Origin: Edaphobacter aggregans | Lineage (GTDB): Bacteria > Acidobacteriota > Terriglobia > Terriglobales > Acidobacteriaceae | Assembly (NCBI RefSeq): GCF_003945235.1 | Contig: NZ_RSDW01000001.1 | Span: 690,001 to 722,000 of the forward strand | Length of the DNA: 32,000 nt | Direction: 5' to 3' | In this document: piece after piece, positions 9,255 to 27,398 of the stretch | Layout of the letters: every line of letters starts with the position of its first letter | Position numbering within the stretch: position 1 is the stretch's first letter | Position numbers and translations under genes: made by a program | Notes under the pieces: generated by a model | Seen by the model: the letters and a program-made list of their open reading frames with translations, nothing else | The model's database searches: none | Told to the model about the DNA's origin: nothing

Positions 9255-9331
<77 letters not shown>

Positions 9332-12121: not shown

Positions 12122-13936
12122 ATGGCCCATATCGTTTCGCACTCCGCGCCCTCGTCCGCTGTCCCCGACATCAAGCCCAGCTACAACCGTTTCCTTCTGC
12201 TCGTCGCCGGACTGGGCGGCCTCCTCTACGGAGTGGACGTAGGCATCATCGGCGGCGCGCTGCCCTATCTCGAAGCGACCTCGCACCTTAACGCCGGCCA
12301 GCTCTCTGTCATCGTCGCCGCCGTCCTTCTGGGTAGCGTCTTCTCGACACTCTTCGCCGGCCTGCTCGCCGACTGGATGGGCCGCAAGCCCCTGATGGTC
12401 CTCAGCGGCATTACCTTCGTCTTGAGCATCCCTGTCATAGCCCTCGCCCACGGCTACGGACCGCTCTTCTTCGGACGGCTCCTGCAGGGCATCAGCGGCG
12501 GCCTCATCGGAGTCGTTGTTCCTCTTTACCTTGCAGAGTGCCTCTCGGCGGCGCATCGCGGCAAAGGCACCGGCATCTTCCAGTGGCTGTTGACCTTGGG
12601 CATCGTCGCCGCAGCCATCATTGGCATCTATTACAGCTACCGCGTCGAAGCTGTCGGACGGATCTCCGACGCCGCCACTCTCTTCGCCTTCAAGGACCAG
12701 GCCTGGCGCCGCATCTTCTGGGTCTCGCTTCCACCCGGGCTCCTCTTCGTCCTCGGTAGCCTCTTTGTCTCCGAATCTCCGCGCTGGCTGCTTGCACGCG
12801 GCAAAAAAGACCTTGCCCACGCCGCGCTCCTTCGCTCCCGCTCAACGGAACAGGCCGACCTCGAACTGCGCGAGATGGAAGAGGCCGCCCTCGCAGCCAC
12901 ATCCTCCGGGAACTCGAGCGGGAAAGCTGTGAAGGATACCCTCCTTCGTCGCAAATACGTCATCCCCTTCATCCTGGCCTGCATCATCCTCTTCTGCAAC
13001 ACCGCGACCGGCATCAACTCCATCATTGGCTACAACACCAGCATCCTGCTGCAGAGCGGTCTCTCGGACATCCGCGCCCACTGGGGCTACGTCATCTTCA
13101 CCGTCATCAATTTCTTGATGACCCTGGTCGGCATGACGCTCGTCGATCGCAAGGGACGCAAATTTCTGCTGACCCTCGGTACCTCCGGAATCATCGTCTC
13201 CCTCATCACCGTAGCCCTGCTGTTCCGCACTACGGAGAAATTCAACATCGACTCCAGTGGCGCAGTTCAATCACTCGTTGCTCCCGACCAGACCCTGACC
13301 CTTCCCTTCGACGGAGCTCAGGCCCAGCGCCTCCTCGCCGCGCAGGGATACTCCGGCAGCGAGATCGACAGCAGTCGCGCCTCCCTTGCCGTCATCTACT
13401 CCTTCGGTGACTTCACCTGCGCCACCAGCTACGTCCGCTCAGACGACCGCGGCGCCGCTCCCATCCAGATCAACCGCGAGGGCTGCGTCCCAGCCAACAA
13501 AGTCGAAGCCATCTTCAAAAACCCCTTCGCCAATCTCGAAGCCGCGCGTACTGCGCCCCTCAAAATTGAGCGTGCGCTCATAGGCAGCGTCCCCAACTCA
13601 ACTCACGGTTGGCTCGTCGCCCTCGGCCTCTACTCCTTCATGGCCTTCTTCGCGATCGGCCCAGGCGTCTGTGTCTGGCTCGCCCTCTCAGAACTGATGC
13701 CCACACGCATCCGCTCGAACGGCATGAGCATCGCGCTCGTCATTAACCAAATCGTTTCAACCACGCTAGCCGGCATCTTCCTTCCCGTCGTCAGCAAGTA
13801 CGGTTATTCGACGATGTTCTTCCTCTTCGCGAGCTTCACGGTTATCTATCTGATCACCGCAGTCTTCTTCCTGCCCGAGACCAAGGGCAAGACCCTCGAA
13901 GAGATCGAGCTTCACTTTGAAGGGGCAGGGGTTTAG
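12122..13936 (+). CDS. MFS transporter, sugar porter family, with a large inserted periplasmic loop
   Basis: 604 aa with sugar-porter signatures GLLADWMGRKP, PESPRWL, VDRKGRK and PETKGKTLEEIE. About 128 extra residues lie between predicted TM9 and TM10. Confidence 0.88.
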   Translation: MAHIVSHSAPSSAVPDIKPSYNRFLLLVAGLGGLLYGVDVGIIGGALPYLEATSHLNAGQLSVIVAAVLLGSVFSTLFAGLLADWMGRKPLMVLSGITFVLSIPVIALAHGYGPLFFGRLLQGISGGLIGVVVPLYLAECLSAAHRGKGTGIFQWLLTLGIVAAAIIGIYYSYRVEAVGRISDAATLFAFKDQAWRRIFWVSLPPGLLFVLGSLFVSESPRWLLARGKKDLAHAALLRSRSTEQADLELREMEEAALAATSSGNSSGKAVKDTLLRRKYVIPFILACIILFCNTATGINSIIGYNTSILLQSGLSDIRAHWGYVIFTVINFLMTLVGMTLVDRKGRKFLLTLGTSGIIVSLITVALLFRTTEKFNIDSSGAVQSLVAPDQTLTLPFDGAQAQRLLAAQGYSGSEIDSSRASLAVIYSFGDFTCATSYVRSDDRGAAPIQINREGCVPANKVEAIFKNPFANLEAARTAPLKIERALIGSVPNSTHGWLVALGLYSFMAFFAIGPGVCVWLALSELMPTRIRSNGMSIALVINQIVSTTLAGIFLPVVSKYGYSTMFFLFASFTVIYLITAVFFLPETKGKTLEEIELHFEGAGV

Positions 13937-14071
13937 TTCGGAACGCTGCATCTCACCCACAGCGACGCGACAAAAGTCCTACTCCTACGCGGCTGCAAGC
14001 ATGAGCTCGTACAAGTCGGCTGATCCCGTGCCCGCAAAGCGTTGGGTCCCTCCTGCAGAGCCCGTCATGCT

Positions 14072-14101
14072 ACAAAAAGGAGCCAGGCATTGGCCTGGCT
14101 C
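14072..14101 (-). terminator. Intrinsic terminator of small-peptide gene copy 1
   Basis: 9-bp stem GAGCCAGGC (14080-14088) / GCCTGGCTC (14093-14101) with a 4-nt loop, followed on the minus strand by CTTTTTGT. A second hairpin (CCCGCTG 14113-14119 / CAGCGGG 14132-14138) lies between it and the stop codon. Confidence 0.7.
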
Positions 14102-14152
14102 TATGGGGAAATCCCGCTGCCTCATGAAGGACAGCGGGCACAACCTCCGACA

Positions 14153-14245
14153 CTAACGGGTTGATGAGAAGCGGAACTGATCGCGGATCTGAATGAGTGC
14201 GATAACGGCAAGAGCAACCATGGCGGGCGAAAACAATAGATACAT
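14153..14245 (-). CDS. Small hydrophobic membrane peptide, 30 aa (paralog 1); not in the ORF track
   Basis: The minus-strand translation is MYLLFSPAMVALAVIALIQIRDQFRFSSTR*. An SD (GAGGAG) lies 7 nt upstream of the ATG, and a dedicated terminator follows. It is 23/30 identical to the copy at 15467-15559, and most nucleotide differences are synonymous. Confidence 0.75.
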   Translation of the reverse strand: MYLLFSPAMVALAVIALIQIRDQFRFSSTR

Positions 14246-14303
14246 AGCAGTTCTCCTCTTTTGCGAAATGTGAAATGTAAGCTTGGTGTTTGTGATTCCC
14301 TGC

Positions 14304-14335
14304 TGCGGAGGAAACGGCAAATGCCAGCCTCCGCA
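14304..14335 (-). promoter_or_regulatory. Conserved hairpin upstream of small-peptide gene copy 1 (also 3' of the PEP-CTERM gene)
   Basis: 8-bp stem TGCGGAGG (14304-14311) / CCTCCGCA (14328-14335) with a 16-nt loop and no U-tract. Its proximal end is 58 nt upstream of the peptide ATG. A counterpart sits at the same distance in copy 2. Confidence 0.4.
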
Positions 14336-14356
14336 ACAGGCCTCAGTCGCAATTAC

Positions 14357-14977
14357 CTATGCGCGAACCAGTTTCCGGCGAACCACGCCCCCCAGACCCA
14401 CCAGTCCCGATCCCAACAACAGCAGGCTCGACGGCTCCGGCGTCGGTGCAAGCCCGATCATCTCCTGCGGAAGGCCCAACCCACGGCCATCAGCAATGTC
14501 GTTTCCGGTCGGGATATAGAAGTTGTAGTCGTCCAGGAACGAGCTCGTGTAGCCGCCGAACGAGTAAGCGTTGCTCACCAGGGTCGAGGCATACGAATCC
14601 GTGTTCGCACCATGGTCAAAGATGTACCAAAGTGCTTCCTGAACATCGGTGGCGTTGTAGGTATGACCATGACCATTCGAAACCCCAAGCATGCTGTAGA
14701 TGTAAGCCTCTTCCTCATACTTGAAGCCGGTTGAGCTCTTAGAGGAGTTCAGATAGGCATCGCCGTTCACGATGTTTACCTGCCAGGACTCTCCAACCTG
14801 GACCTCCCGCTGGTCATCGAGGCAAAACAGGCTCACTGGCGTCGTTCCATCGAGTTGCAACTGATACGGGCCAGTCTGTCCGGTCGCGGCTCCGACCATC
14901 TTCAGCGTGTCAGCCTTTGCTGAACCAGAGAACAACGCAAGACAGATAGCAGGCAAAAGATAAGCAATTTTCTTCAC
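14357..14977 (-). CDS. PEP-CTERM sorting domain-containing secreted protein
   Basis: The C-terminus PTPEPSSLLLLGSGLVGLGGVVRRKLVRA shows the PEP motif, a TM helix and a basic tail. The start was set to the GTG at 14977, which has AAGGAGAA 5 nt upstream. That gives the signal peptide VKKIAYLLPAICLALFSGSAKA. Confidence 0.85.
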   Translation of the reverse strand: MKKIAYLLPAICLALFSGSAKADTLKMVGAATGQTGPYQLQLDGTTPVSLFCLDDQREVQVGESWQVNIVNGDAYLNSSKSSTGFKYEEEAYIYSMLGVSNGHGHTYNATDVQEALWYIFDHGANTDSYASTLVSNAYSFGGYTSSFLDDYNFYIPTGNDIADGRGLGLPQEMIGLAPTPEPSSLLLLGSGLVGLGGVVRRKLVRA

Positions 14978-15408
14978 TTCGTTTCTCCTTGCTCGCCGTG
15001 CGAGCGTTTGTTCCAAAGTGTCCATTCATCTGGTCTGCTTTGCCGTCGTTGTAACCGCGGCCTCGACTCACCGATTGAACACTCTGCTTTCACGAACACA
15101 CGGCTTCGCGAAAGAATCCATAGTTCTGGCCACGCGTCCATTCAGAAGATTGGGCGCCACAGCCGCTTCCATTGCTTTGCTGGTGCACTATCCCTTATTG
15201 CAAGCAAGAGGCCATTCGCAAAATTTTGCATATTCGCAGAAGAAACGCCGTTTTCAGCTGGGCAGGACGTTCGGTGTACCAAAAAGCGACATCGTAGACA
15301 AAGCGATTGCCCTCCCCAGAGGCAAAAGTTTTCCCTCGCGTTTCCCCTGATAAGTATTTCGCTTCACACACTTACGGAACGAAGCCGAATCTCCAAACAA
15401 CTCGTACG

Positions 15409-15440
15409 CCAAAAAAAAGCCAGGCTAAAAAGCCTGGCTT
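15409..15440 (-). terminator. Intrinsic (potentially bidirectional) terminator of small-peptide gene copy 2
   Basis: 10-bp stem AAGCCAGGCT (15417-15426) / AGCCTGGCTT (15431-15440) with a 4-nt loop. The plus strand has an A8 run (15411-15418), which is a U8 tract on the minus strand, and TT follows on the plus strand. The stem sequence is homologous to the copy-1 terminator. Confidence 0.8.
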
Positions 15441-15466
15441 TTACAAACTTTAAAACTGACCGATCT

Positions 15467-15559
15467 TTAACGAGGAGACGAAAAGCGAAATTGATCCCGA
15501 AGCTGGATCAGAGCAATAACAGTGAGAGCAGCGAAGGCAGGCGTGAAAAATAGATACAT
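15467..15559 (-). CDS. Small hydrophobic membrane peptide, 30 aa (paralog 2); not in the ORF track
   Basis: The minus-strand translation is MYLFFTPAFAALTVIALIQLRDQFRFSSPR*. An SD (AAGGGGA) lies 6 nt upstream of the ATG, and a strong terminator follows 26 nt after the stop. Paralog of 14153-14245. Confidence 0.75.
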   Translation of the reverse strand: MYLFFTPAFAALTVIALIQLRDQFRFSSPR

Positions 15560-15615
15560 GGTGATTCCCCTTTGCGAAAAGATGAATGAACTTCAGTACT
15601 GCATTTGTTTCCCCA

Positions 15616-15645
15616 TTGCGAAGGAGTTGTACAACCCCGCCGCAA
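15616..15645 (-). promoter_or_regulatory. Conserved imperfect hairpin/palindrome upstream of small-peptide gene copy 2
   Basis: The plus strand reads TTGCGAAGGAGTTGTACAACCCCGCCGCAA. Outer arms TTGCG/CGCAA enclose the perfect palindrome GTTGTACAAC. The proximal end is 56 nt upstream of the ATG, matching the position of the copy-1 hairpin. Confidence 0.4.
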
Positions 15646-16076
15646 CAAGCTCTTCAGAATCTCGCCTTCCTCGAAAACACTCCGGGAAGACTCCCTTACT
15701 TGTTATCACGTAACCCGGCTCGTTTAAAGCCCAAGCATGGTAACCACTTTGATTACAAGCTGATACAGCATAGTTACCAGCAAATAAGCGGCCATTTGCG
15801 AATATGCAGATTTCAAGGGAGAATCGCTGTTTTTAGCCTGGAGAGTGACCCAACTATGCAAAACAAGTCGCATTTTGGGAAAACTATTATCTACTGCAAA
15901 ATGGCAAAGATTTTCCCACATGCAGCAACTTGCACGCACAACCCTGCGCCCACATACGCAAGAAAATGCAAGGCGGCTACTTCAGAAAGGCAATTAGGGG
16001 ATGCCGAAAAGTAGGTCCTTCAAGGGCCGCTGAAACCTCAGCGCAACGAAACATCGCCCGGGCTAAAGTCGAACCT

Positions 16077-17228
16077 TTAAACCGCAACCGTGAACGTATC
16101 CTCGCTCCGTGTCACCGCGCGATACATCGTGTCCCGCTCGAAAGGCTCTCGTCCAGCCTCTGTAATCAGCCGAACCAGATCCTTCCTTCGCATGCCCTGC
16201 GGGGTAGTCGCTCCCGCATCGTGATAGATCTTCTCCTCGACAACCGTGCCATCGATGTCATCAGCGCCGAACCGCAGCGAGATCTGCGCCATCTTTGGCG
16301 AGACCATCTGCCAATAGCTCTTGATGTGCGAAAAGTTATCCAGCATCAACCGGCCCACCGCAATCTGCTTCATATCGAGCATCCCGGTCGTCCGCGGAAT
16401 ATGCGCCAACGCCGTATTGTCCGGATGAAACGCCAGCGGAATAAATGTCTGGAATCCGCCTGTCTCATCCTGCACCGCCCGAAGCTTCAACAGATGGTCG
16501 ACGCGATCCTCATCGTTCTCGACGTGCCCGTAAAGCATCGTCGCATTCGACCGAAGCCCGATCTTGTGCGCCGTCCGAGCCGTATCCAACCATTCGCTAC
16601 CGTCGATCTTGTGGTCGCAGATGATATGCCGGATCCGGTCAGCAAAGATCTCCGCGCCGCCACCCGGCAACGAGTCCACGCCGGCCTCCTTCATCCGCTC
16701 CAGCGTCTGGGCAATCGTCATCTTGCCGCGTTTGGCCAAAAACGCCACCTCCACCATGGTGAACGCTTTGATATGTACCTTCGGAAACCGCTCCTTCAAC
16801 CCGCGCACCAAGTCCATGAAGTATTCGAAAGGAAGGTCAGGATGCAGTCCGCCGACAATATGAAACTCGGTCACCGCCTCCGAGTAGCCAGAGGCCGCAG
16901 TCTCCCACGCCTCCTCAAGAGCCATCGTATATGTCCCAGCCTCGCCCTTCTTCCGCCCAAACGCACACAACCTGCAAGACGCCACGCAGACGTTGGTCGG
17001 ATTGATATGCCGGTTCACATTGAAGTAAGCCGTGTTCCCATGCAGTCGTTCGCGCACGAGGTTCGCCAGCCAACCCACCGCCAGGATGTCTCCGCTGCGA
17101 TAGAGAGCCACGCCATCCTCAAAGCTGAGCCGCTCCCCTGCTTCCACCTTTGCCGCAATCGGCAAAAGCGCCTTGTCGTCTGTCTGGAAGGAGTGTCGTG
17201 GGCGCGTGCTCTTCGATTCAAAGCTCAT
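16077..17228 (-). CDS. mqnE: Radical SAM menaquinone-biosynthesis enzyme of the futalosine pathway (aminofutalosine synthase MqnE; MqnC not excluded)
   Basis: 383 aa with the radical-SAM cluster motif CVASCRLCAF (CxxxCxxC) preceded by YFNVNRHINPTNVC. It also carries GGGAEIF, SNATMLYGHVE and QDETGGFQTFIPLAFHPDNT, typical of the MqnE/MqnC/CofH family. The MqnE versus MqnC call rests on recalled motif differences only. Confidence 0.8.
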   Translation of the reverse strand: MSFESKSTRPRHSFQTDDKALLPIAAKVEAGERLSFEDGVALYRSGDILAVGWLANLVRERLHGNTAYFNVNRHINPTNVCVASCRLCAFGRKKGEAGTYTMALEEAWETAASGYSEAVTEFHIVGGLHPDLPFEYFMDLVRGLKERFPKVHIKAFTMVEVAFLAKRGKMTIAQTLERMKEAGVDSLPGGGAEIFADRIRHIICDHKIDGSEWLDTARTAHKIGLRSNATMLYGHVENDEDRVDHLLKLRAVQDETGGFQTFIPLAFHPDNTALAHIPRTTGMLDMKQIAVGRLMLDNFSHIKSYWQMVSPKMAQISLRFGADDIDGTVVEEKIYHDAGATTPQGMRRKDLVRLITEAGREPFERDTMYRAVTRSEDTFTVAV

Positions 17229-17267
17229 AGTACGATTCTATCCTCCGCGGCCATTCCCGTGAGACTC

Positions 17268-19325
17268 TCAATGCGCCGCCGCGTCTACCGAGTTCACCAT
17301 CTCCGGCTGAATGACGACACCATCAAATAGAGTCGCGCCCACCAGATGGTTCCCCATAGGCCGCACCAGTCGCAGATTCCAGCCCGTGTTCCAGTAGCTC
17401 ACCTGCTTGTCGGGTAAATGCGCCGAGAACACAAACGTCGTTGAGCTGTTGCCTGTAACCAGTACCCGTTCGCCGCGTTCGTCATAGAAGAGACTGTTCA
17501 CATCCCTAACGTAAAGGTTCTTCACCGACTGCCACGTCGCACCCTTGTCCTGCGAGTTATAGACACCCTCGCGGCCACCAATCCAGAGACCGCCAAAACC
17601 ATCTACCGCAACAGCGGCCGCCTGCGTTAGCTCTGTCGGAGGCTTCACCGGAGTCCAGGTCTGTCCGCCATCGGAGCTGACGACCGCGTTCCGTAAATTG
17701 GCCGCAAAGATCAGCGACTTCGCAGCTGAAACAAAGTACCACTCCTGCCCCTCCGGATTGTTAGCCAGCGTCCAACTCGTTCCCGCTGTCCCACTCTTCA
17801 ATAGTCCCGCAGAGGTCGCCGCGTACATCGTGTCGCCGTCACGCGCAAACGCAAAGACCGTCCCATCAAACACCTTCGCCGGCACAGTCTTTGCCGTCGT
17901 ACGACTCGCACCAACGCTGCTCGTCGCAGTCTTGCCTGCAGTACCTGTCTTCTTGCCAGCCGTCGTAGGTTTCTTTACCGGAGCGGCCGTTGCCGCTGCA
18001 CTCGTCACAGGCAACGCCAACGATACCTGATCCGCCTTACTCCAAAATTCACCCGTGAGCCGATATATCCCGTGCCGCGTACCTGCCAGTACCGTCCCAT
18101 CCGATGCCTGCCCCAGGCTGAAGACATCATGCTTCTCCAGTCCGTTGCTCTTCTGCGTCCACGTCAGGCCGCCGTTATCGCTGACAAATACTCCGCCCCA
18201 GGCCTTATCATTCACCACGCCAACATAAATTGTCGAAGGCTGTCGCGCATCCCCTACAGAGGACGTAATCTGTCTCGCCGAAAACCCATTGTTCGACGGC
18301 TGAAACGAATATCCGCCGTCATTGCTGACCAGCACGCCACCACGGTCAGTCGCCAGCATGACTCGATTCGAATCGGTAGGGTTCACATACACGTCATTGA
18401 CGATCAACTCCGGCCCCGACATACGCACCCACGTCTTCCCGGAATCCGCCGTCCGGTACAACCCTTCCGTCGTACCCGCGAACACGATATTCAAATTGGA
18501 CGGATCTTGCATCAATACCCTTGTTCGGCGTGCAGTATTGGGAATTCCTTGAATCTTGTGAAACATCGCAGCCGCGTTTTCACTCTTATAGATTCCCGAA
18601 CACGCGCTTGCGTAAACCACATTCGGATCCTTTGGATCCACAATGATCGAGAAGACGTCCGAATCGTCGATCAGACCTTCCTTGGCTCCAATGTTGGACC
18701 AATGCGCTCCGCCGTCCGAAGTCTTCCAGGGAAGATGCCACGTCCCCGCATAGATAATCTGCGGATCCTTCGGATCAATCGCAATGGATTCGACCTCGTG
18801 CAACTCCCGGCTGCCTTCAGGGCTAATCAACTGCCAGTGGATCCCACCGTCCGTCGAGCGATAGACGCCCTTCAGCGTACCCGCCACTACCGTCTTTGGA
18901 TCGGATGGCGCACTCGCAAGCGCACGGATGGATTGCCCTTTCAGCTCAGCCGAAGCATTCCATGTCACCCCTGCATCGTCACTGATGTACAGGCCGCCAT
19001 CGCTGCTGCTCAACACCCACGCGCCAACCAGAATGCGCCCCGGCGCCGCCGCATCGACGACGATCGAATCCAGCACCAGGTCATCGCGCTTCCCTACCCT
19101 GGCCAGCCGTTTCCAATCCGCGCCGCCGTTACGCGTTTCGTAGATCCATCCATTGGCCGTCCCCATATAGAGGTGCATCTTGTCGTGCGGATCGGCAGCG
19201 AACGCCCGTGCATCTCCCCCGTTTGGCCCAAAAGGCAACCAATCGGCCGCCTTTACCCGAAGGCAGGTAAGGGAAAGGATCAAGGCAAGAAGAGAGACTT
19301 TAAATCTATTGCGTTTATTCAACAT
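17268..19325 (-). CDS. Secreted BNR/Asp-box repeat beta-propeller protein (sialidase/Ycf48/GH74-like fold)
   Basis: About nine Asp-box motifs (SDDAGVTW, STDGGIHW, TSDGGAHW, TADSGKTW, SDNGGLTW, SSDGGQTW, SQDKGATW and others). The start was set to the ATG at 19325, giving the signal peptide MLNKRNRFKVSLLALILSLTCLRVKA. A T/A/K-rich linker lies between two propeller halves. Confidence 0.8.
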   Translation of the reverse strand: MLNKRNRFKVSLLALILSLTCLRVKAADWLPFGPNGGDARAFAADPHDKMHLYMGTANGWIYETRNGGADWKRLARVGKRDDLVLDSIVVDAAAPGRILVGAWVLSSSDGGLYISDDAGVTWNASAELKGQSIRALASAPSDPKTVVAGTLKGVYRSTDGGIHWQLISPEGSRELHEVESIAIDPKDPQIIYAGTWHLPWKTSDGGAHWSNIGAKEGLIDDSDVFSIIVDPKDPNVVYASACSGIYKSENAAAMFHKIQGIPNTARRTRVLMQDPSNLNIVFAGTTEGLYRTADSGKTWVRMSGPELIVNDVYVNPTDSNRVMLATDRGGVLVSNDGGYSFQPSNNGFSARQITSSVGDARQPSTIYVGVVNDKAWGGVFVSDNGGLTWTQKSNGLEKHDVFSLGQASDGTVLAGTRHGIYRLTGEFWSKADQVSLALPVTSAAATAAPVKKPTTAGKKTGTAGKTATSSVGASRTTAKTVPAKVFDGTVFAFARDGDTMYAATSAGLLKSGTAGTSWTLANNPEGQEWYFVSAAKSLIFAANLRNAVVSSDGGQTWTPVKPPTELTQAAAVAVDGFGGLWIGGREGVYNSQDKGATWQSVKNLYVRDVNSLFYDERGERVLVTGNSSTTFVFSAHLPDKQVSYWNTGWNLRLVRPMGNHLVGATLFDGVVIQPEMVNSVDAAAH

Positions 19326-22003: not shown

Positions 22004-22714
22004 TTACATACAGCTCGACCGCTCCAGCCGAACGCCCTTATCTGGTCGAAACCCCACCGGAAGCTCCAGACTGATCCGGAACCGCATCCACGTCACCCGC
22101 CCTAGCGGCGTAACCTTACCGTCCGCAGGCTGTTCTATCCGGTGTGCCGTCGACCCGAAATGCGAAGCCACCGTAGCCGCCGCCTTCGCCTGATCCGCCA
22201 TTCCCGGAACCAGATGAGCGTCTAGTATCTCCAACCGACCTTGAGGCGCCTGGCTGACCCGCTCGGCTAACCTGCCCTTCACATCCTCCGACGGAATCGC
22301 GGACTTCCGGTACTCGCTATAAACCTCAGCCAATTGAGCGAAACTCCGCCCATCAGCCGCAAACCGGAACTCCCGCGGATTCCACCCCACTGCATCCTGT
22401 GCCCTAAAACTATAGTCCGTGCTAATCAACAATGGGCTAACCGACTGATAAGGTGGGGTAGCTAACTCCGCATAATCATGAGCAGGCCGCGGTCCCCCAG
22501 CCGGCAGCACCCGCAGAATCCACCCGGAAGCCAACGGCTCCAGCATCACCTCAAGCCCATTCCCAATCGGCCGCACAAACTCCTTACCGGCGCGAACCTC
22601 CCCCTCCAGCACCCCCCGAACGCAAGTCTTCCCTGATGGCCCCGCCGCCCACCCCACCCCGACACCCAGCACAACCACCCAGACCACCGCCACAACCCAA
22701 AACCTAACGCGCAT
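22004..22714 (-). CDS. Hypothetical secreted protein, translationally coupled to glnD
   Basis: The ATG at 22714 has GGAGGAGA immediately upstream and overlaps the last 11 nt of glnD. The N-terminus MRVRFWVVAVVWVVVLGVGVGWAAG is signal-peptide-like. I recognise no family. Confidence 0.6.
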   Translation of the reverse strand: MRVRFWVVAVVWVVVLGVGVGWAAGPSGKTCVRGVLEGEVRAGKEFVRPIGNGLEVMLEPLASGWILRVLPAGGPRPAHDYAELATPPYQSVSPLLISTDYSFRAQDAVGWNPREFRFAADGRSFAQLAEVYSEYRKSAIPSEDVKGRLAERVSQAPQGRLEILDAHLVPGMADQAKAAATVASHFGSTAHRIEQPADGKVTPLGRVTWMRFRISLELPVGFRPDKGVRLERSSCM

Positions 22715-25364
22715 TCTCCTCCATCGCCTCAATCAGTGCCCGCCCCAGAGCCTCTTGCTCATCTTTCTCCAGCTTCGCCCCATCCTTGGTCAGATAAAAC
22801 ACGTCGATCGCCATCTCCCCCTCGGTATCGATCAGCGCCACCTCGATATTGCATCCAAACCCGGCCAGTGTCAGACTCAACGCCCGAAGCAGCCCGGGAA
22901 CGTCCTGCGTCACCACCTCCACCAGCGTGCTGTGCGACGACGCCTCATCATCAAACTCGACCCGTGTCTCCACCACCACCTTCGGAGCCTTGCGCCGCCC
23001 CCGTTTCCGCCCACTCAATAGCTTCTCGACCGACACTGTCCCCGTCATCACATCGTGGACACTCTTCACAAACCCCACATGCTCCGAAGCATTCATCTCC
23101 AGCGTCCGGAAACTGTCCGTAAACCGGAAGCTATCCACTACCACCCCCTGCCGGTTCGAAAACGCATCCGCCGTGACGATGTTCATCCCCCACCCAGCCA
23201 GCGCACCCGACATGTTCGCGAACAGCAGCGCCCGATCCGGCGTCACCACCGTCAGCTCACTCACTGCTGGCGAGTACCGGAAATCCAGCTGCACCGCATC
23301 CTCCCCCAACCGCTGCGACATCTGGAAGTGAGTCCGCACTTGCTCCGGCGTACGCGTCCGCACATACCTCTCTGGAAACCCCTCAAGATACCCCGCCACC
23401 GCCGCCCGCTGTCCGGGCAGCAACGATGCCACCCGATGCACCAGCTCGCTCTCCGCCTGCGCTCCCACCCGCTCCTCATCCACGCTGCGATCCAGATGAT
23501 TCGCCGTCGCCATATACAGCCGCCACAGATTCTCCGCCTTCCAGGGCGTCAAGGCATCCGGATGCACTGCGTTAATGTCCGCATACGTAAACAGCGTCAG
23601 CATGCGAAGCATCTCAGGCGTCTGAACCTTGCCCGCAAACGCCCCCACCGTCTCGGCGTCGAAGATATCCCGCCGCAGCGCAGCCGACATCTCCAGATGG
23701 TTCGCAATCAGCCCCAACACCAATCCGCTCTCATACGAATCCAGCTCCAGCCGAGCCAGCACACTCTGCGTTAGCCGAACACTCTCCTGCGCATGACTGC
23801 CTGTCTCCCGCCCCTTACCCGTGTCATGCAGCAAAGCCGCCAGATACAGGAGCCCCGGATGAGGCAGCTCCCGCAACAAACCTCCGAACCGCGTCGACCA
23901 CTCCGCCTTCGCTCCCGTCTGCGCATCCTCCAGCGCATGCAGCGTATCGATCAACACAAACGTGTGCTCATCGACCGTGTACCGGTGGTAAGCATCGCGA
24001 ATCACCAGCGCATCGATCCCATGAAACTCCGGAATCAGCAGTTCCAGCACCCCCAGCGCATGCATCGAGCGCAGCGCCGCCCCCGCATGCCGCCCCGTCA
24101 GTATGGCCTCGAGCTTGTGCCACAGCGTCGGCCCCTCTTCCAGATCCGCCGACATCAACGGCAGAGCCTCCGAGATCCGCTCCTCGGCCTCCCTGCCCAG
24201 CGTGCACCCCGTCCGAGCCATCGCTGCAAATACCTGCAGCACGACATCCGGGTCGTTCGCAGGATCCTCACCCGCTGCCGTCACCACATCCAGCACCACC
24301 CGCCCCCGCTCCAGGCGAAAGCCCTGCTGCTCCGTCCCCTGCGGCTTCCGGTCACCCTTCAAACCCAGCAGCCTGGACGAGGCCTTCGCAACCGGCGCAG
24401 GAACCTCCTCCATCATCTGCTTCACCCTTTGCTCCACGCTCCGGGCATGCCTGAAGTAGATCCGCATCCAGTACGCCGCATCCACTTTCTTCGGGCGGCG
24501 TCCCACCAACCCGATCTCCCCCTCAGCCGCAGCATCTTGAGCCTTCCAGGCCAACGTATTGTCATCCCGCTCATGCCGATAGTGCAGAAAGCACCGCACC
24601 AGCCGCAGAAACTCCACCGCCTGCCGAAACTCCCGCCCTTCCTCTGCATCCCCATTCTTGGTCTCGACTCCAACCCCCTGCAGCCGAGCCAACCACCCAC
24701 ACACGTTCACATCGCGCAGCCCACCCGGACAGTCCTTGATATTCGGCTCCAGATGAAACAACGTATCCCCATACTTCGCATGACGAGCCCGCGTCAGCTC
24801 CATCAACCGCGCCACAATCGCCTTCTGATCCCGCTGCAACAGCTTCGGCACCACCTGCCCCGACAGCTTGTTGTACAGCTCCGTATCGCCCGTAAGCAGA
24901 CGATGATCCATCAGCGACAGGGCAAACTCAGCATTGTCCTCATCAAACTTCTCGCACTCCGCCAGCTTCCGTGTCGCTGGCGACACCCGTATCCCGCAGT
25001 CCCAAAGCTCCTGATTCACGCGCCGGATCGCGTCCTTCACATCCTTCTCAACCACCCGGCCATCCAGCAGAAACAGCAGGTCCACATCCGAGTAAGGAAA
25101 AAGCTCCCGCCGTCCATACCCACCCACCGCCAGCACTGCAATTCCGCTAGCCAGCCGTGCATCCTGCTCAATAACCTGCTGCCAAAGCCCACCAACCAGT
25201 TCGTCAAGCGCCCGAGCCCGAGCCGCAATCGTCACCGACCCCGACGCACCCGTCTCGAACGCGCCACGAATCTCCAGCATCATCCGCTGGTACTTCCCGC
25301 GCATCCCGCTACTTGTGGATTCGTTTACCTGCATCTGTCTCTTTGCTGTCGGAGCCTCCAGCAT
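22704..25364 (-). CDS. glnD: [Protein-PII] uridylyltransferase / uridylyl-removing enzyme
   Basis: 886 aa with a nucleotidyltransferase motif GGYGRRELFPYSDVDLLFL, an HD domain (LLHDTGKG) and two C-terminal ACT-like domains. The exact start is uncertain: 25364 or the ATG at 25334. Confidence 0.92.
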   Translation of the reverse strand: MLEAPTAKRQMQVNESTSSGMRGKYQRMMLEIRGAFETGASGSVTIAARARALDELVGGLWQQVIEQDARLASGIAVLAVGGYGRRELFPYSDVDLLFLLDGRVVEKDVKDAIRRVNQELWDCGIRVSPATRKLAECEKFDEDNAEFALSLMDHRLLTGDTELYNKLSGQVVPKLLQRDQKAIVARLMELTRARHAKYGDTLFHLEPNIKDCPGGLRDVNVCGWLARLQGVGVETKNGDAEEGREFRQAVEFLRLVRCFLHYRHERDDNTLAWKAQDAAAEGEIGLVGRRPKKVDAAYWMRIYFRHARSVEQRVKQMMEEVPAPVAKASSRLLGLKGDRKPQGTEQQGFRLERGRVVLDVVTAAGEDPANDPDVVLQVFAAMARTGCTLGREAEERISEALPLMSADLEEGPTLWHKLEAILTGRHAGAALRSMHALGVLELLIPEFHGIDALVIRDAYHRYTVDEHTFVLIDTLHALEDAQTGAKAEWSTRFGGLLRELPHPGLLYLAALLHDTGKGRETGSHAQESVRLTQSVLARLELDSYESGLVLGLIANHLEMSAALRRDIFDAETVGAFAGKVQTPEMLRMLTLFTYADINAVHPDALTPWKAENLWRLYMATANHLDRSVDEERVGAQAESELVHRVASLLPGQRAAVAGYLEGFPERYVRTRTPEQVRTHFQMSQRLGEDAVQLDFRYSPAVSELTVVTPDRALLFANMSGALAGWGMNIVTADAFSNRQGVVVDSFRFTDSFRTLEMNASEHVGFVKSVHDVMTGTVSVEKLLSGRKRGRRKAPKVVVETRVEFDDEASSHSTLVEVVTQDVPGLLRALSLTLAGFGCNIEVALIDTEGEMAIDVFYLTKDGAKLEKDEQEALGRALIEAMEENAR

Positions 25365-25501
25365 ACAACCAGCGGGGCACCTTGCTCGACTTAGTAGCAG
25401 GAGTTAGGGAGAATTTTCGAGAAGGGGGCAGAGTGCCTGTTGAAGAGAAGTAGCAATCAACAGAAGGTAAATGTAACAGAAGTTCTGAAAAGAGATTCAA
25501 C

Positions 25502-25546
25502 GCGGATATTCCCTCAGTAGCTAATAACTACCGAGAGAATATCCGC
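25502..25546 (-). terminator. Long imperfect hairpin between glnK and glnD (terminator/attenuator or processing site)
   Basis: Outer 10-bp stem GCGGATATTC (25502-25511) / GAATATCCGC (25537-25546) with further inner pairing (GTAG/CTAC, CTC/GAG). On the minus strand it is followed by a pyrimidine-rich stretch, GTTGAATCTCTTTTCAG. Confidence 0.4.
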
Positions 25547-25571
25547 CACAAGACTAACTTTGCGAACCGGC

Positions 25572-25916
<345 letters not shown>

Positions 25917-25955
25917 TTAGCCCTTCCTCATAGCTCGCAGCCTAACGCCCGTAGC

Positions 25956-27398
25956 TTAGTGCGCCCAATCGTACCCTTCTTCGCCGTGTTGCGACAGGTC
26001 CAGACCTTCGCGCTCATCTTCCTCACTCACCCTAAGGCCAATCGTCTTATCTACCACGAACAAAATCACCAATGTACCTACAATAGAAAGGCCCCACGCA
26101 ATCGCCACGCCACAGGCCTGATTCAGCACCTGATGCGCGTTGCCCTCAAGCAGTCCAGTCGCCTTCCCTGCCCCAAAGATCGGATTGATTGCGCTGTTGG
26201 CGAACACGCCCGTCAGCAACGCTCCCAGCGTCCCGCCCGCACCATGCACGCCAAACGCATCCAGCGAGTCGTCATACCCGAACCACGCCTTCACCTTCAC
26301 GACCATCAGATAACAGAACACACCGGCAAACAGCCCAATCCAAAGAGCCGAGATCGGCGTCACAAAACCAGCCGCCGGAGTAATCGCGACCAACCCGGCC
26401 ACCGCGCCCGAGATCGCTCCCAGCGCCGAAACCTTACCCTGCCGGATCCACTCCGCGCCGCTCCATCCAATCGTCGCCGCAGCCGCGCCAAAGTGCGTCG
26501 CCACGAAAGCCGAGGTCGCCAGCGTTCCAGCAGCAAGCGCCGACCCGGCATTGAACCCGAACCAGCCCACCCACAGCAAACAAGCCCCAATAAAGCTCAA
26601 TACCACCGAGTGCGGAGGCATCGGCACCTTCGGATACCCCAGCCTCTTGCCCAGATACAGCGCCGTCACCAGCGCCGACACACCCGAAGTCACATGCACA
26701 ACCGTCCCGCCCGCAAAGTCCAGGCAAGGAATCCGCCCACCCAGCGAAGCATTCAACAGTCCACCCTTGCCCCAGACCATGTGCGCCATAGGGCTGTACA
26801 CCATCAACGCCCACAGGATCATGAACACCAGCATCGCCGAAAACTTCATCCGTTCTGCAAACGCGCCCGTAATCAATGCCGGCGTAATAATCGCAAACAT
26901 CAGCTGATACACCATGAACGTCTGTAGCGGAATCGTCGCCGCATACTTCACATCCGGAGCCAGCCCCACTCCATGCAGCAGCACATTATGCAGCCCACCA
27001 ATAAACCAGCTACCCTCGCCAAACGCTAGCGAGTACGTCACCAGCGCCCACAGCACCGTAATCACGGCCATCATGGCGAAGGTCTGCATCATCGTTCCCA
27101 AAATGTTTTTCTTCCGTACCAATCCGCCGTAAAACAGCGCCAGCCCCGGCCCGCTCATCATCAGCACCAGCGCCGCCGAAACCAGCATCCACGCGTTGTC
27201 CCCGGAGGTCTGCGCCGCGGCAATCGCCGTAGCATTATCGGCAGCCTGCTTCTCCAGAGCCGCAATCCGGTCCGGCTGCGTCGCACCCGACTGAGGCGCA
27301 GTCGCCTGCGCCACCGCCACCGGTCCACTCACGACCGCTCCGCCAAAGATCAGCGCCAACACCAGAACCAGAAACACCTTCACTGCTGAAAAACGCAT
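25956..27398 (-). CDS. amtB: Ammonium transporter (Amt family)
   Basis: 480 aa with a signal peptide, 11 TM segments and Amt signatures DFAGGTVVHVTSG and FGVHGAGGTLGALLTG. Confidence 0.95.
   Translation of the reverse strand: MRFSAVKVFLVLVLALIFGGAVVSGPVAVAQATAPQSGATQPDRIAALEKQAADNATAIAAAQTSGDNAWMLVSAALVLMMSGPGLALFYGGLVRKKNILGTMMQTFAMMAVITVLWALVTYSLAFGEGSWFIGGLHNVLLHGVGLAPDVKYAATIPLQTFMVYQLMFAIITPALITGAFAERMKFSAMLVFMILWALMVYSPMAHMVWGKGGLLNASLGGRIPCLDFAGGTVVHVTSGVSALVTALYLGKRLGYPKVPMPPHSVVLSFIGACLLWVGWFGFNAGSALAAGTLATSAFVATHFGAAAATIGWSGAEWIRQGKVSALGAISGAVAGLVAITPAAGFVTPISALWIGLFAGVFCYLMVVKVKAWFGYDDSLDAFGVHGAGGTLGALLTGVFANSAINPIFGAGKATGLLEGNAHQVLNQACGVAIAWGLSIVGTLVILFVVDKTIGLRVSEEDEREGLDLSQHGEEGYDWAH

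Follow-up and report, generated by a model that had tools for sequence, protein, structure and literature searches.

The question raised by this locus is whether two very short, closely similar open reading frames (ORFs) in the genome of Edaphobacter aggregans are protein-coding genes and, if so, what their products do. The window analysed here is a stretch of 32,000 nucleotides (contig NZ_RSDW01000001.1, positions 690,001 to 722,000; coordinates below count from its first letter), in which a first-pass annotation had proposed two unannotated, paralogous genes for single-helix hydrophobic peptides on either side of a gene for a PEP-CTERM protein. Our comparative analysis leaves hardly any doubt that both ORFs, named pepA and pepB here, are real genes. 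As to function, the overall best explanation, which we favour by a modest degree of belief, is that they encode inducible single-pass peptides with the N terminus outside and the C terminus inside (Nout-Cin), which engage a partner in the membrane as part of a sigma-54 envelope programme. The two genes are as follows.

14153..14245, minus strand: pepA, a 30-codon gene for the peptide MYLLFSPAMVALAVIALIQIRDQFRFSSTR, identical to GenBank RSL15122.1 (EDE15_0599)
15467..15559, minus strand: pepB, a 30-codon gene for the peptide MYLFFTPAFAALTVIALIQLRDQFRFSSPR

Re-deriving the two minus-strand ORFs (14245 to 14153 and 15559 to 15467) returned the coordinates and translations originally claimed, and the reported comparison between them was reproduced exactly: the peptides share 23 of 30 residues, and their codons divide into 10 identical, 13 synonymous (plus a TAG/TAA difference at the stop) and 7 replaced ones, with 10 silent changes and 2 replacements in codons 15-30. 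The 25 nucleotide differences fall 5/1/19 on codon positions 1/2/3 (chi-square p = 2e-5), and the Nei-Gojobori proportions of synonymous and non-synonymous differences are pS 0.70 and pN 0.12, with an omega of ~0.06. When both genes were compared by BLASTN together with 421-nt flanks, the DNA similarity was bounded by the Shine-Dalgarno sequence (SD) at the start and the stop codon at the end, the terminator stem being the sole part of the flanks that aligned. A tblastn search of the 32-kb window gave no third copy. Of the claim that the genes are unannotated, only the half concerning pepB stood: its exact sequence is absent from a 15-billion-protein collection and from every public protein set searched. 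The exact pepA sequence, however, is already deposited for E. aggregans as a 'hypothetical protein' (also UniRef A0A428ME30). Routine annotation had picked up one of two equally well-supported paralogs, pepA, and not the other.

Homologs were sought as the first-pass annotation had suggested, and a family emerged. A genome scan by pattern plus tblastn, covering one genome per species with narrow patterns that recovered 6 species, yielded 6 loci (Acidobacteriaceae metagenome-assembled genomes, Edaphobacter sp. and Tunturiibacter); a metagenome scan added 53 further loci, bringing the total to 59 fetched loci (individual ones are cited below by L numbers). When 1.84 billion cluster representatives were searched with a profile of both peptides, 64 clusters matched at E<=1e-3, many of them called at 28-33 amino acids (aa) and others with spurious N-terminal extensions. 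Within the fetched loci, copies were collected by profile search over all six-frame fragments, resulting in 67 copies that represent 52 distinct coding sequences (CDS) and 37 distinct peptides. All of these start with M-Y, are 28-31 aa long and are gap-free over their first 24 codons, and no frame is broken. Separately, five sequences (P0017, P0027, P0041, P0047 and P0058) are called with C-terminal extensions to 47-67 aa beyond the conserved 24-residue core, which could be true longer variants, read-through or frameshift artefacts.

The way these sequences vary bears directly on whether they are translated. Across the 52 distinct CDS, column entropy at codon positions 1/2/3 is 0.47/0.23/1.22, the changes required number at least 26/11/52 (p = 5e-7), and pN/pS averages 0.24. 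Orthologs of pepB differ by 7-8 silent changes and 0-2 replacements (pS 0.35-0.41 versus pN 0.00-0.03), and those of pepA show pS 0.35-0.53 versus pN 0.04-0.12. RNAalifold, applied to the coding regions of 22 diverse members, returned zero consensus base pairs. The dominance of third-position variation and the lack of an RNA consensus inside the coding region bear out the proposal that selection acts on the peptide rather than on an RNA or a chance ORF. ORFs this short, with conserved RNA hairpins immediately upstream and downstream, might nevertheless be a conserved RNA element, chance ORFs or cis-acting leader peptides, and thus no protein genes at all. Against this stand the third-position bias itself, the unbroken frames, the confinement of similarity between SD and stop codon and the absence of base pairs within the CDS; a leader peptide, moreover, would have nothing downstream to regulate, as what comes after each ORF is a terminator and a convergent gene. 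We therefore disfavour a non-coding origin and hold it to be extremely improbable. The coding reading appears as secure as comparative data allow, with translation itself predicted.

The peptides match no described family. Neither of them was hit by any Pfam-A or NCBIfam family even at E<=1, PHROG and PADLOC gave no match, and the best match in a sequence-profile search of the PDB, the 'supernumerary helix' of particulate methane monooxygenase (pMMO; E = 0.42), is a hydrophobic chance match. This accords with the first-pass annotation, whose author had recognised no named small-protein family by eye. For KdpF, CydX, AcrZ and Hok-Gef specifically, there was neither a profile match at E<=1 (Pfam-A, NCBIfam) nor an adjacent partner operon. 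A tblastn search against GenBank phages and PLSDB plasmids gave no match, with a low-complexity filter that may mask the helix, and a word-indexed search of 5.8 billion proteins, for which both peptides were concatenated because at least 40 aa are required, returned 2 over-extended ORFs only. Literature searches with the peptide strings or the topic found no paper on these sequences. Judging from the sequences recovered, this is an unnamed family that occurs in Terriglobales (Acidobacteriota) and in phages, at least one of which is a prophage of that order.

All members share a compact signature, with the consensus MY[LIV][LF]FxP[AS]xxA[LV]xVI[GA]xI[QT][LI][RK][DE][QH]F followed by a variable, mostly basic tail of 4-8 residues. 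Two residues, M1 and P7, are invariant, and Y2, F5, A11, I15, I18, R21 and F24 are conserved at >=90%, while positions 6, 9, 10, 13 and 17 vary freely. The periodicity of conservation has its spectral peak at 100-110 degrees, so the constraint falls on one helical face. Residues 2-20 reach a 19-residue Kyte-Doolittle mean of 1.9-2.2; the tail on the C side carries charges of +3/-1 in the window peptides and a net charge of +1 or +2 in 49 of 61 family members; and AlphaFold2 places a helix at residues 7-29 (predicted local distance difference test score, pLDDT, 82). Together, these results back the earlier prediction of a single transmembrane (TM) helix plus basic tail. Because the positive tail follows the hydrophobic helix, the predicted topology is that of an Nout-Cin, single-pass inner-membrane peptide.

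In these respects the peptides resemble MgrB (the PhoQ feedback inhibitor), AcrZ (AcrB), MgtS, KdpF and CydX, all of which are shorter than 50 aa and have a single TM helix and a dedicated SD. Like them, the peptides appear to have their expression tied to a specific regulon, and the conservation of one face fits the helix-helix contact presumed for such proteins. In contrast, they share no sequence similarity with any of these proteins, have no kdp, cyd, acr or phoQ gene next to them, are limited to Terriglobales and phages, and are preceded by sigma-54 rather than sigma-70 promoters.

That promoter class, together with its enhancer, a conserved 5' stem-loop and the phage homologs, was added to the picture by the present analysis and provides the main functional clues. 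The elements concerned, and the PEP-CTERM gene between the two peptide genes, are listed here.

15779..15794, minus strand: sigma-54-type promoter of pepB, TGGCCGCTTATTTGCT (-24 GG / -12 GC), 235 nt upstream of the ATG
15877..15931, minus strand: pepB enhancer (upstream activating sequence, UAS), AAGTTGCTGCATGT-GGGAAAATCTTTGCC-N12-ATAATAGTTTTCCC, from the alignment of promoter regions
15199..15214, minus strand: sigma-54-type promoter TGGCCTCTTGCTTGCA, upstream of the PEP-CTERM gene and probably serving pepA too
15297..15335, minus strand: enhancer (UAS) of the PEP-CTERM gene and pepA, GGGAAAACTTTTGCC-N8-GGGCAATCGCTTTGTC, from the alignment of promoter regions
14357..15025, minus strand: PEP-CTERM protein gene, the longest ORF running from ATG 15025, the likely start being GTG 14977 after AAGGAG

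A search of both strands of the 32-kb window for TGGC-N7-TTGCW gave 2 matches where 0.66 are expected. Both lie on the minus strand, one preceding pepB and the other the PEP-CTERM gene with pepA, and both have the canonical 10-nt separation of -24 GG and -12 GC (TGGCAC-N5-TTGCW). Orthologous pepB loci keep the site at -232 to -236. Family-wide, a strict site precedes 55 of the 67 peptide genes and one in relaxed form (TGG[CT]) precedes 63; in the remaining 4, a contig end cuts off the upstream region. The strict site is found at -55 to -557 for stand-alone peptide genes and at -885 to -1130 where the PEP-CTERM gene is interposed. Every locus with such an interposed gene has a counterpart of the window's PEP-CTERM promoter, at -935 to -1130 relative to the peptide ATG. 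In all clades, the sigma-54 site is preceded 80-125 nt further upstream by an enhancer block of the form ATTGCA .. GGAAAAnnTTTGCC - N4-10 - GGGCAATnnTTTTGCC .. TTcTGCAca, followed by an A-rich stretch, with the same order of modules in 21 promoter regions from different loci. Distant chromosomal members, found in thioredoxin/GH88 or BNR/MFS contexts (GH, glycoside hydrolase; MFS, major facilitator superfamily), also have the sigma-54 site plus a TTTGCC..GGGCAA block, and within the 852 kb of fetched sequence each combination of sigma-54 site and enhancer precedes a peptide unit. The phage copies are without this combination.

Upstream of pepA, neither a sigma-54-like nor a sigma-70-like site of its own was found, and a scan for sigma-70-like promoters gave no site. 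Since no other promoter-like site precedes it, pepA would be read from the PEP-CTERM promoter, as the distal cistron of a PEP-CTERM-pepA transcript; pepB probably has an enhancer-dependent promoter to itself, giving a leader of ~200 nt. On the strength of these motifs, control of both genes by sigma-54 and an enhancer-binding protein (bEBP) is likely. Two other forms of control were considered and rejected. Candidate elements of a sigma-70 or extracytoplasmic function (ECF)-type promoter between stem-loop and SD differ in spacing among loci (judged by eye), and the case for LexA/SOS control came down to a lone GTTC..GTTC pair, spaced by 11 instead of 7 nt and located within the PEP-CTERM coding sequence (checked by eye against the LexA-box consensus).

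Two further observations concern sigma-54 sites elsewhere. In a Tunturiibacter-type clade (L004-L006, L017, L025, L032, L038 and L049-L052), a second sigma-54-like motif, TGG[TC]-N7-TTGCT, occurs after the PEP-CTERM stop, ~111-127 nt ahead of the ATG of the peptide gene, where it overlaps the 5' arm of a local hairpin; the sequence upstream of it is coding and has no recognisable enhancer, and the motif could be an internal promoter or a coincidence. In the window itself, genes for an ammonium transporter, a P-II protein and a GlnD-like uridylyltransferase, identified from reading their translations, stand in a row at ~22704-27398 on the minus strand. Genes of this type are typical sigma-54/NtrC targets elsewhere; TGGC-N7-TTGCW has no match at this row.

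Each peptide gene is equipped with its own translation and termination signals.

14251..14259, minus strand: SD of pepA, AGAGGAGAA, unpaired in the minimum free energy (MFE) fold
15565..15572, minus strand: SD of pepB, AAGGGGAA
15611..15649, minus strand: stem-loop in the pepB 5' leader, present in MFE and centroid folds
14299..14340, minus strand: 13-bp stem-loop between the PEP-CTERM stop and pepA, without a U-run, supported by folding and covariation
14073..14138, minus strand: two hairpins 3' of pepA, the second of which (14101-14073) is a canonical intrinsic terminator according to a terminator scan
15409..15442, minus strand: intrinsic terminator of pepB, AAAAGCCAGGC-UUUUUA-GCCUGGCUUUUUUUU, from folding

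The first-pass annotation had credited each copy with its own SD and a strong terminator, and both were indeed found, the terminators consisting of a G+C-rich hairpin plus U-run. The same holds throughout the family: a GGAG/GGAGG SD is located 6-9 nt before the ATG in every family locus, and a CCAGGC/GCCUGG hairpin followed by a U-run comes after nearly every member. The leader stem-loops at 15649-15611 and 14340-14299, in turn, both lack a U-run, and the consensus helix of the stem-loop over 14 loci shows compensatory changes in 6 pairs. This U-less leader structure may attenuate read-through or stabilise the RNA. Pairing of its 3' arm with the SD was rejected, as conservation of such pairing across loci is lacking (by eye). 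Rfam at gathering thresholds gave one match in the window, a tRNA at 9258-9331 on the minus strand, and at E<=1 only sub-threshold, terminator-shaped matches near the peptides. We also observed that the terminator stem (CCAGGC-loop-GCCTGG or GTCAGGC/GCCTGAC) is near-constant across clades with saturated silent sites even as its distance from the stop codon varies, a degree of conservation exceeding the need of a generic terminator. Moreover, the ~40 nt before the SD (TTgCATTTCAtcTTTCGCAAA) are 80-95% identical in pepB orthologs, which by eye is above the level of silent sites.

The identity of the gene between the two copies was confirmed: its residues 194-218 match PF07589 at E = 6e-6 and TIGR02595 above the cut-off (22.9-26.5 bits on TIGR02595/PF07589). 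In 24 loci the distance from the end of an orthologous PEP-CTERM gene (~220 aa) to the peptide ATG downstream is 96-151 nt, and in one more locus it is 273 nt. The neighbours of the peptide genes are mqnE, the PEP-CTERM gene and an MFS sugar porter. The aminofutalosine synthase gene mqnE (TIGR03700, 504 bits versus a cut-off of 435) is found upstream in 28 loci, in the same orientation, and downstream of the peptide gene in Acidobacteriaceae there are convergent transporter/LacI or GH42-like genes (GH42 being read from the sequence). A precursor of a ribosomally synthesized and post-translationally modified peptide (RiPP), serving the upstream radical-SAM gene, was considered and rejected: the gene in question is a genuine mqnE, and the peptide, a TM helix, contains no Cys. 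As a side observation, a 466-aa ORF rich in Arg, His and Pro runs antisense to mqnE (15930-17330, plus strand), with similar ORFs in other loci; it seems to be the shadow of a G+C-rich gene and not a gene in its own right.

Beyond the window, the order pepB, PEP-CTERM gene, pepA recurs in L007. Loci L001-3 and L008-9 instead hold two peptide genes in tandem and no PEP-CTERM gene. Comparing L001:5826-6000 with window positions 15214-14246 revealed the promoter region joined to the 3' arm of the intercistronic stem-loop, which indicates a clean deletion of the PEP-CTERM gene with the peptide gene kept. More distant members have other contexts altogether (thioredoxin-like -> peptide <- GH88; BNR <-> peptide <- MFS/LacI). 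One of these, L060:4797-5047, also seen in L061-L063, contains an independent tandem pair of 30-codon members separated by 65 nt, with one sigma-54 site, TGGCACGTCAGCTGCT, ahead of both, the thioredoxin-like gene upstream and GH88 convergent, so that duplication of the peptide gene has been recurrent. From the variety of unrelated contexts, we conclude that the peptide is an autonomous unit.

One alternative is that the peptides are a component of the PEP-CTERM/exosortase system or a mimic of its substrates, a cargo-free 'xP[AS]-TM-basic' sorting signal that occupies or tunes the exosortase by which the PEP-CTERM protein expressed along with it is processed. In 25 loci they come immediately after a PEP-CTERM gene; this position, the enhancer and sigma-54 promoter type shared with that gene, and the common gross layout of proline, hydrophobic helix and arginine would all suit such a role. 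Yet neither peptide matches TIGR02595 or PF07589 at E<=1, both lack the PEP motif as well as a passenger domain, and their hydrophobic stretch beyond the proline is ~4 residues shorter. An adjacent PEP-CTERM gene, furthermore, is missing in many lineages and for every phage copy, and in L001-3 the peptide outlasted the deletion of the PEP-CTERM gene between promoter and peptide. A sorting mimic is therefore very unlikely.

Control of PEP-CTERM genes by sigma-54 has a precedent. Haft et al. (2006) described a sigma-54 motif and an activator site before PEP-CTERM genes in Proteobacteria only, together with PrsK/PrsR/PrsT (PMC1569441), and RpoN dependence was shown experimentally for a gene likewise called pepA in Aquincola (PMC9850573). 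For Acidobacteriota, our literature search found nothing comparable to sigma-54-controlled PEP-CTERM genes. The present locus resembles the PrsK-PrsR PEP-CTERM genes in its long non-coding upstream regions, its -24 GG/-12 GC motif with an activator site ~60-90 nt further up, its single-gene or very short units and the association with PEP-CTERM. It differs in the element itself, as motif 1 of the proteobacterial element ends in TTTACA and the enhancer of Acidobacteriota is a TTTGCC..GGGCAA-type repeat, and in its target: here the 30-aa peptide is the constant target and the PEP-CTERM gene is optional.

Relatives of the peptides are also encoded in early-gene regions of at least three phage types. 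The first type (L069, L070 and L066) has a Dda-like helicase (phrog_325, 2e-98) and a DNA polymerase (phrog_405, 4e-235), with the peptide gene lying within runs of small same-strand genes and being the first of its run in L069 and L070. The second, L073, is a 79-kb uncultivated virus genome (UViG) from IMG/VR with 41% G+C. In the third, L075, the peptide gene is located in the early region of a Mu-like prophage with a transposase (phrog_310, 1e-85) and a MuB-like protein (phrog_296, 1e-27); this Mu-like transposase is annotated in Terriglobales genomes. All phage copies score 35-47 bits against a profile built from chromosomal members only (E<=8e-4 at Z = 1.8e9).

These phage copies bear on the main rival explanation, a membrane-damaging toxin. 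The peptides would then be either type I toxin-antitoxin-like or growth-arrest peptides deployed under stress or by phages, in the manner of TisB/DinQ/Fst or phage Kil, and on building up in the inner membrane they would collapse the proton-motive force or prevent division. In length (28-33 aa), N-terminal TM helix and charged tail, the ORFs look like those of small hydrophobic toxins, and they match type I toxins (TisB, DinQ, Fst/Ldr, ZorO, Hok) in size, hydrophobic helix with polar or charged tail, tandem copies, structured leaders and prophage occurrence. The peptide gene stands alone with its own terminator behind a long structured 5' leader, it was duplicated in tandem in at least 2 lineages (the window and L060-63), its homologs occupy early regions of three phage types including a Mu-like one, and tight sigma-54 control would suit a harmful product. 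Several features nevertheless set the family apart. No antisense RNA or other antitoxin candidate was found: a scan of both strands of 13800-16100 gave no promoter-like site and, the tRNA apart, no Rfam family reached its threshold, although consensus matching leaves room for a small RNA. PADLOC gave no match. The pepA SD lies in an open loop in MFE and centroid folds calculated from an inferred 5' end, unlike in translation-inert toxin mRNAs. The gene has also been inherited vertically: in 28 loci it keeps a syntenic, conserved chromosomal position downstream of mqnE even though silent sites are saturated, and it is preceded by a sigma-54-type promoter. Finally, the strong constraint on one helix face and the invariant P7/RDQF point to a specific contact over generic membrane insertion. 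Overall, we consider a toxin unlikely.

One-face conservation, the interfacial RDQF motif, a dedicated regulon and vertical inheritance together lead us to read the peptides as membrane-embedded binding partners of a conserved inner-membrane protein, plausibly in the envelope/PEP-CTERM programme, a reading to which we give not quite even chances. Transcription would be silent until a cognate bEBP is activated, and the pepA transcript would arise by read-through of the conserved U-less stem-loop from the PEP-CTERM gene. Once in the membrane, the peptide would dock onto a conserved inner-membrane protein by way of the conserved face of its helix and the RDQF motif and would modulate that protein, which may belong to the same sigma-54 envelope/exopolysaccharide (PEP-CTERM) programme; candidates are a sensor kinase feeding the bEBP, resulting in MgrB-like feedback, or the exosortase. 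Phages might express their own copy early from phage promoters and thereby manipulate the same host target. A parallel is offered by PspB and PspG of the phage-shock regulon, which are small integral membrane proteins under sigma-54 and a dedicated bEBP and are linked to the envelope. Psp proteins, however, are 70-120 aa long and have no known sequence similarity to the peptide family, and neither pspA nor pspF is found near the peptide genes.

Several points weigh against a membrane-binding role in such a programme. Neither the window nor any of the fetched loci contains a gene for a bEBP, a sensor kinase or an exosortase. In many lineages the peptide gene has no PEP-CTERM neighbour, so that the shared promoter type is the main basis for a link to this system. 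The assignment to sigma-54 is a motif match, and co-transcription of pepA is deduced from the absence of another promoter. Phage carriage and recurrent tandem duplication, lastly, suit a toxin as well as a regulator.

Small single-pass membrane proteins as such are already known; this family, as yet unnamed, combines a clear signature with an unusual promoter class and phage relatives. A bolder version of the partner-binding reading, which we regard as quite unlikely, casts the peptide as the constant output of an undescribed Terriglobales sigma-54/enhancer regulon, acting as feedback or effector subunit for a PEP-CTERM/exopolysaccharide surface programme, captured by several unrelated phages and expressed early to reprogramme the host envelope. 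If true, an early phage copy could, for example, block aggregation or superinfection, and a 30-aa host regulator would be a recurrent phage weapon. Acidobacteriota are among the most abundant soil bacteria, and their small proteins and sigma-54 regulons are almost unstudied. The locus provides a well-supported, conserved family of 30-aa membrane peptides with a clear sequence signature, an enhancer plus sigma-54 promoter with which the other members of the regulon and its activator could be tracked down, and a direct, testable link to PEP-CTERM surface proteins and phage-host conflict.

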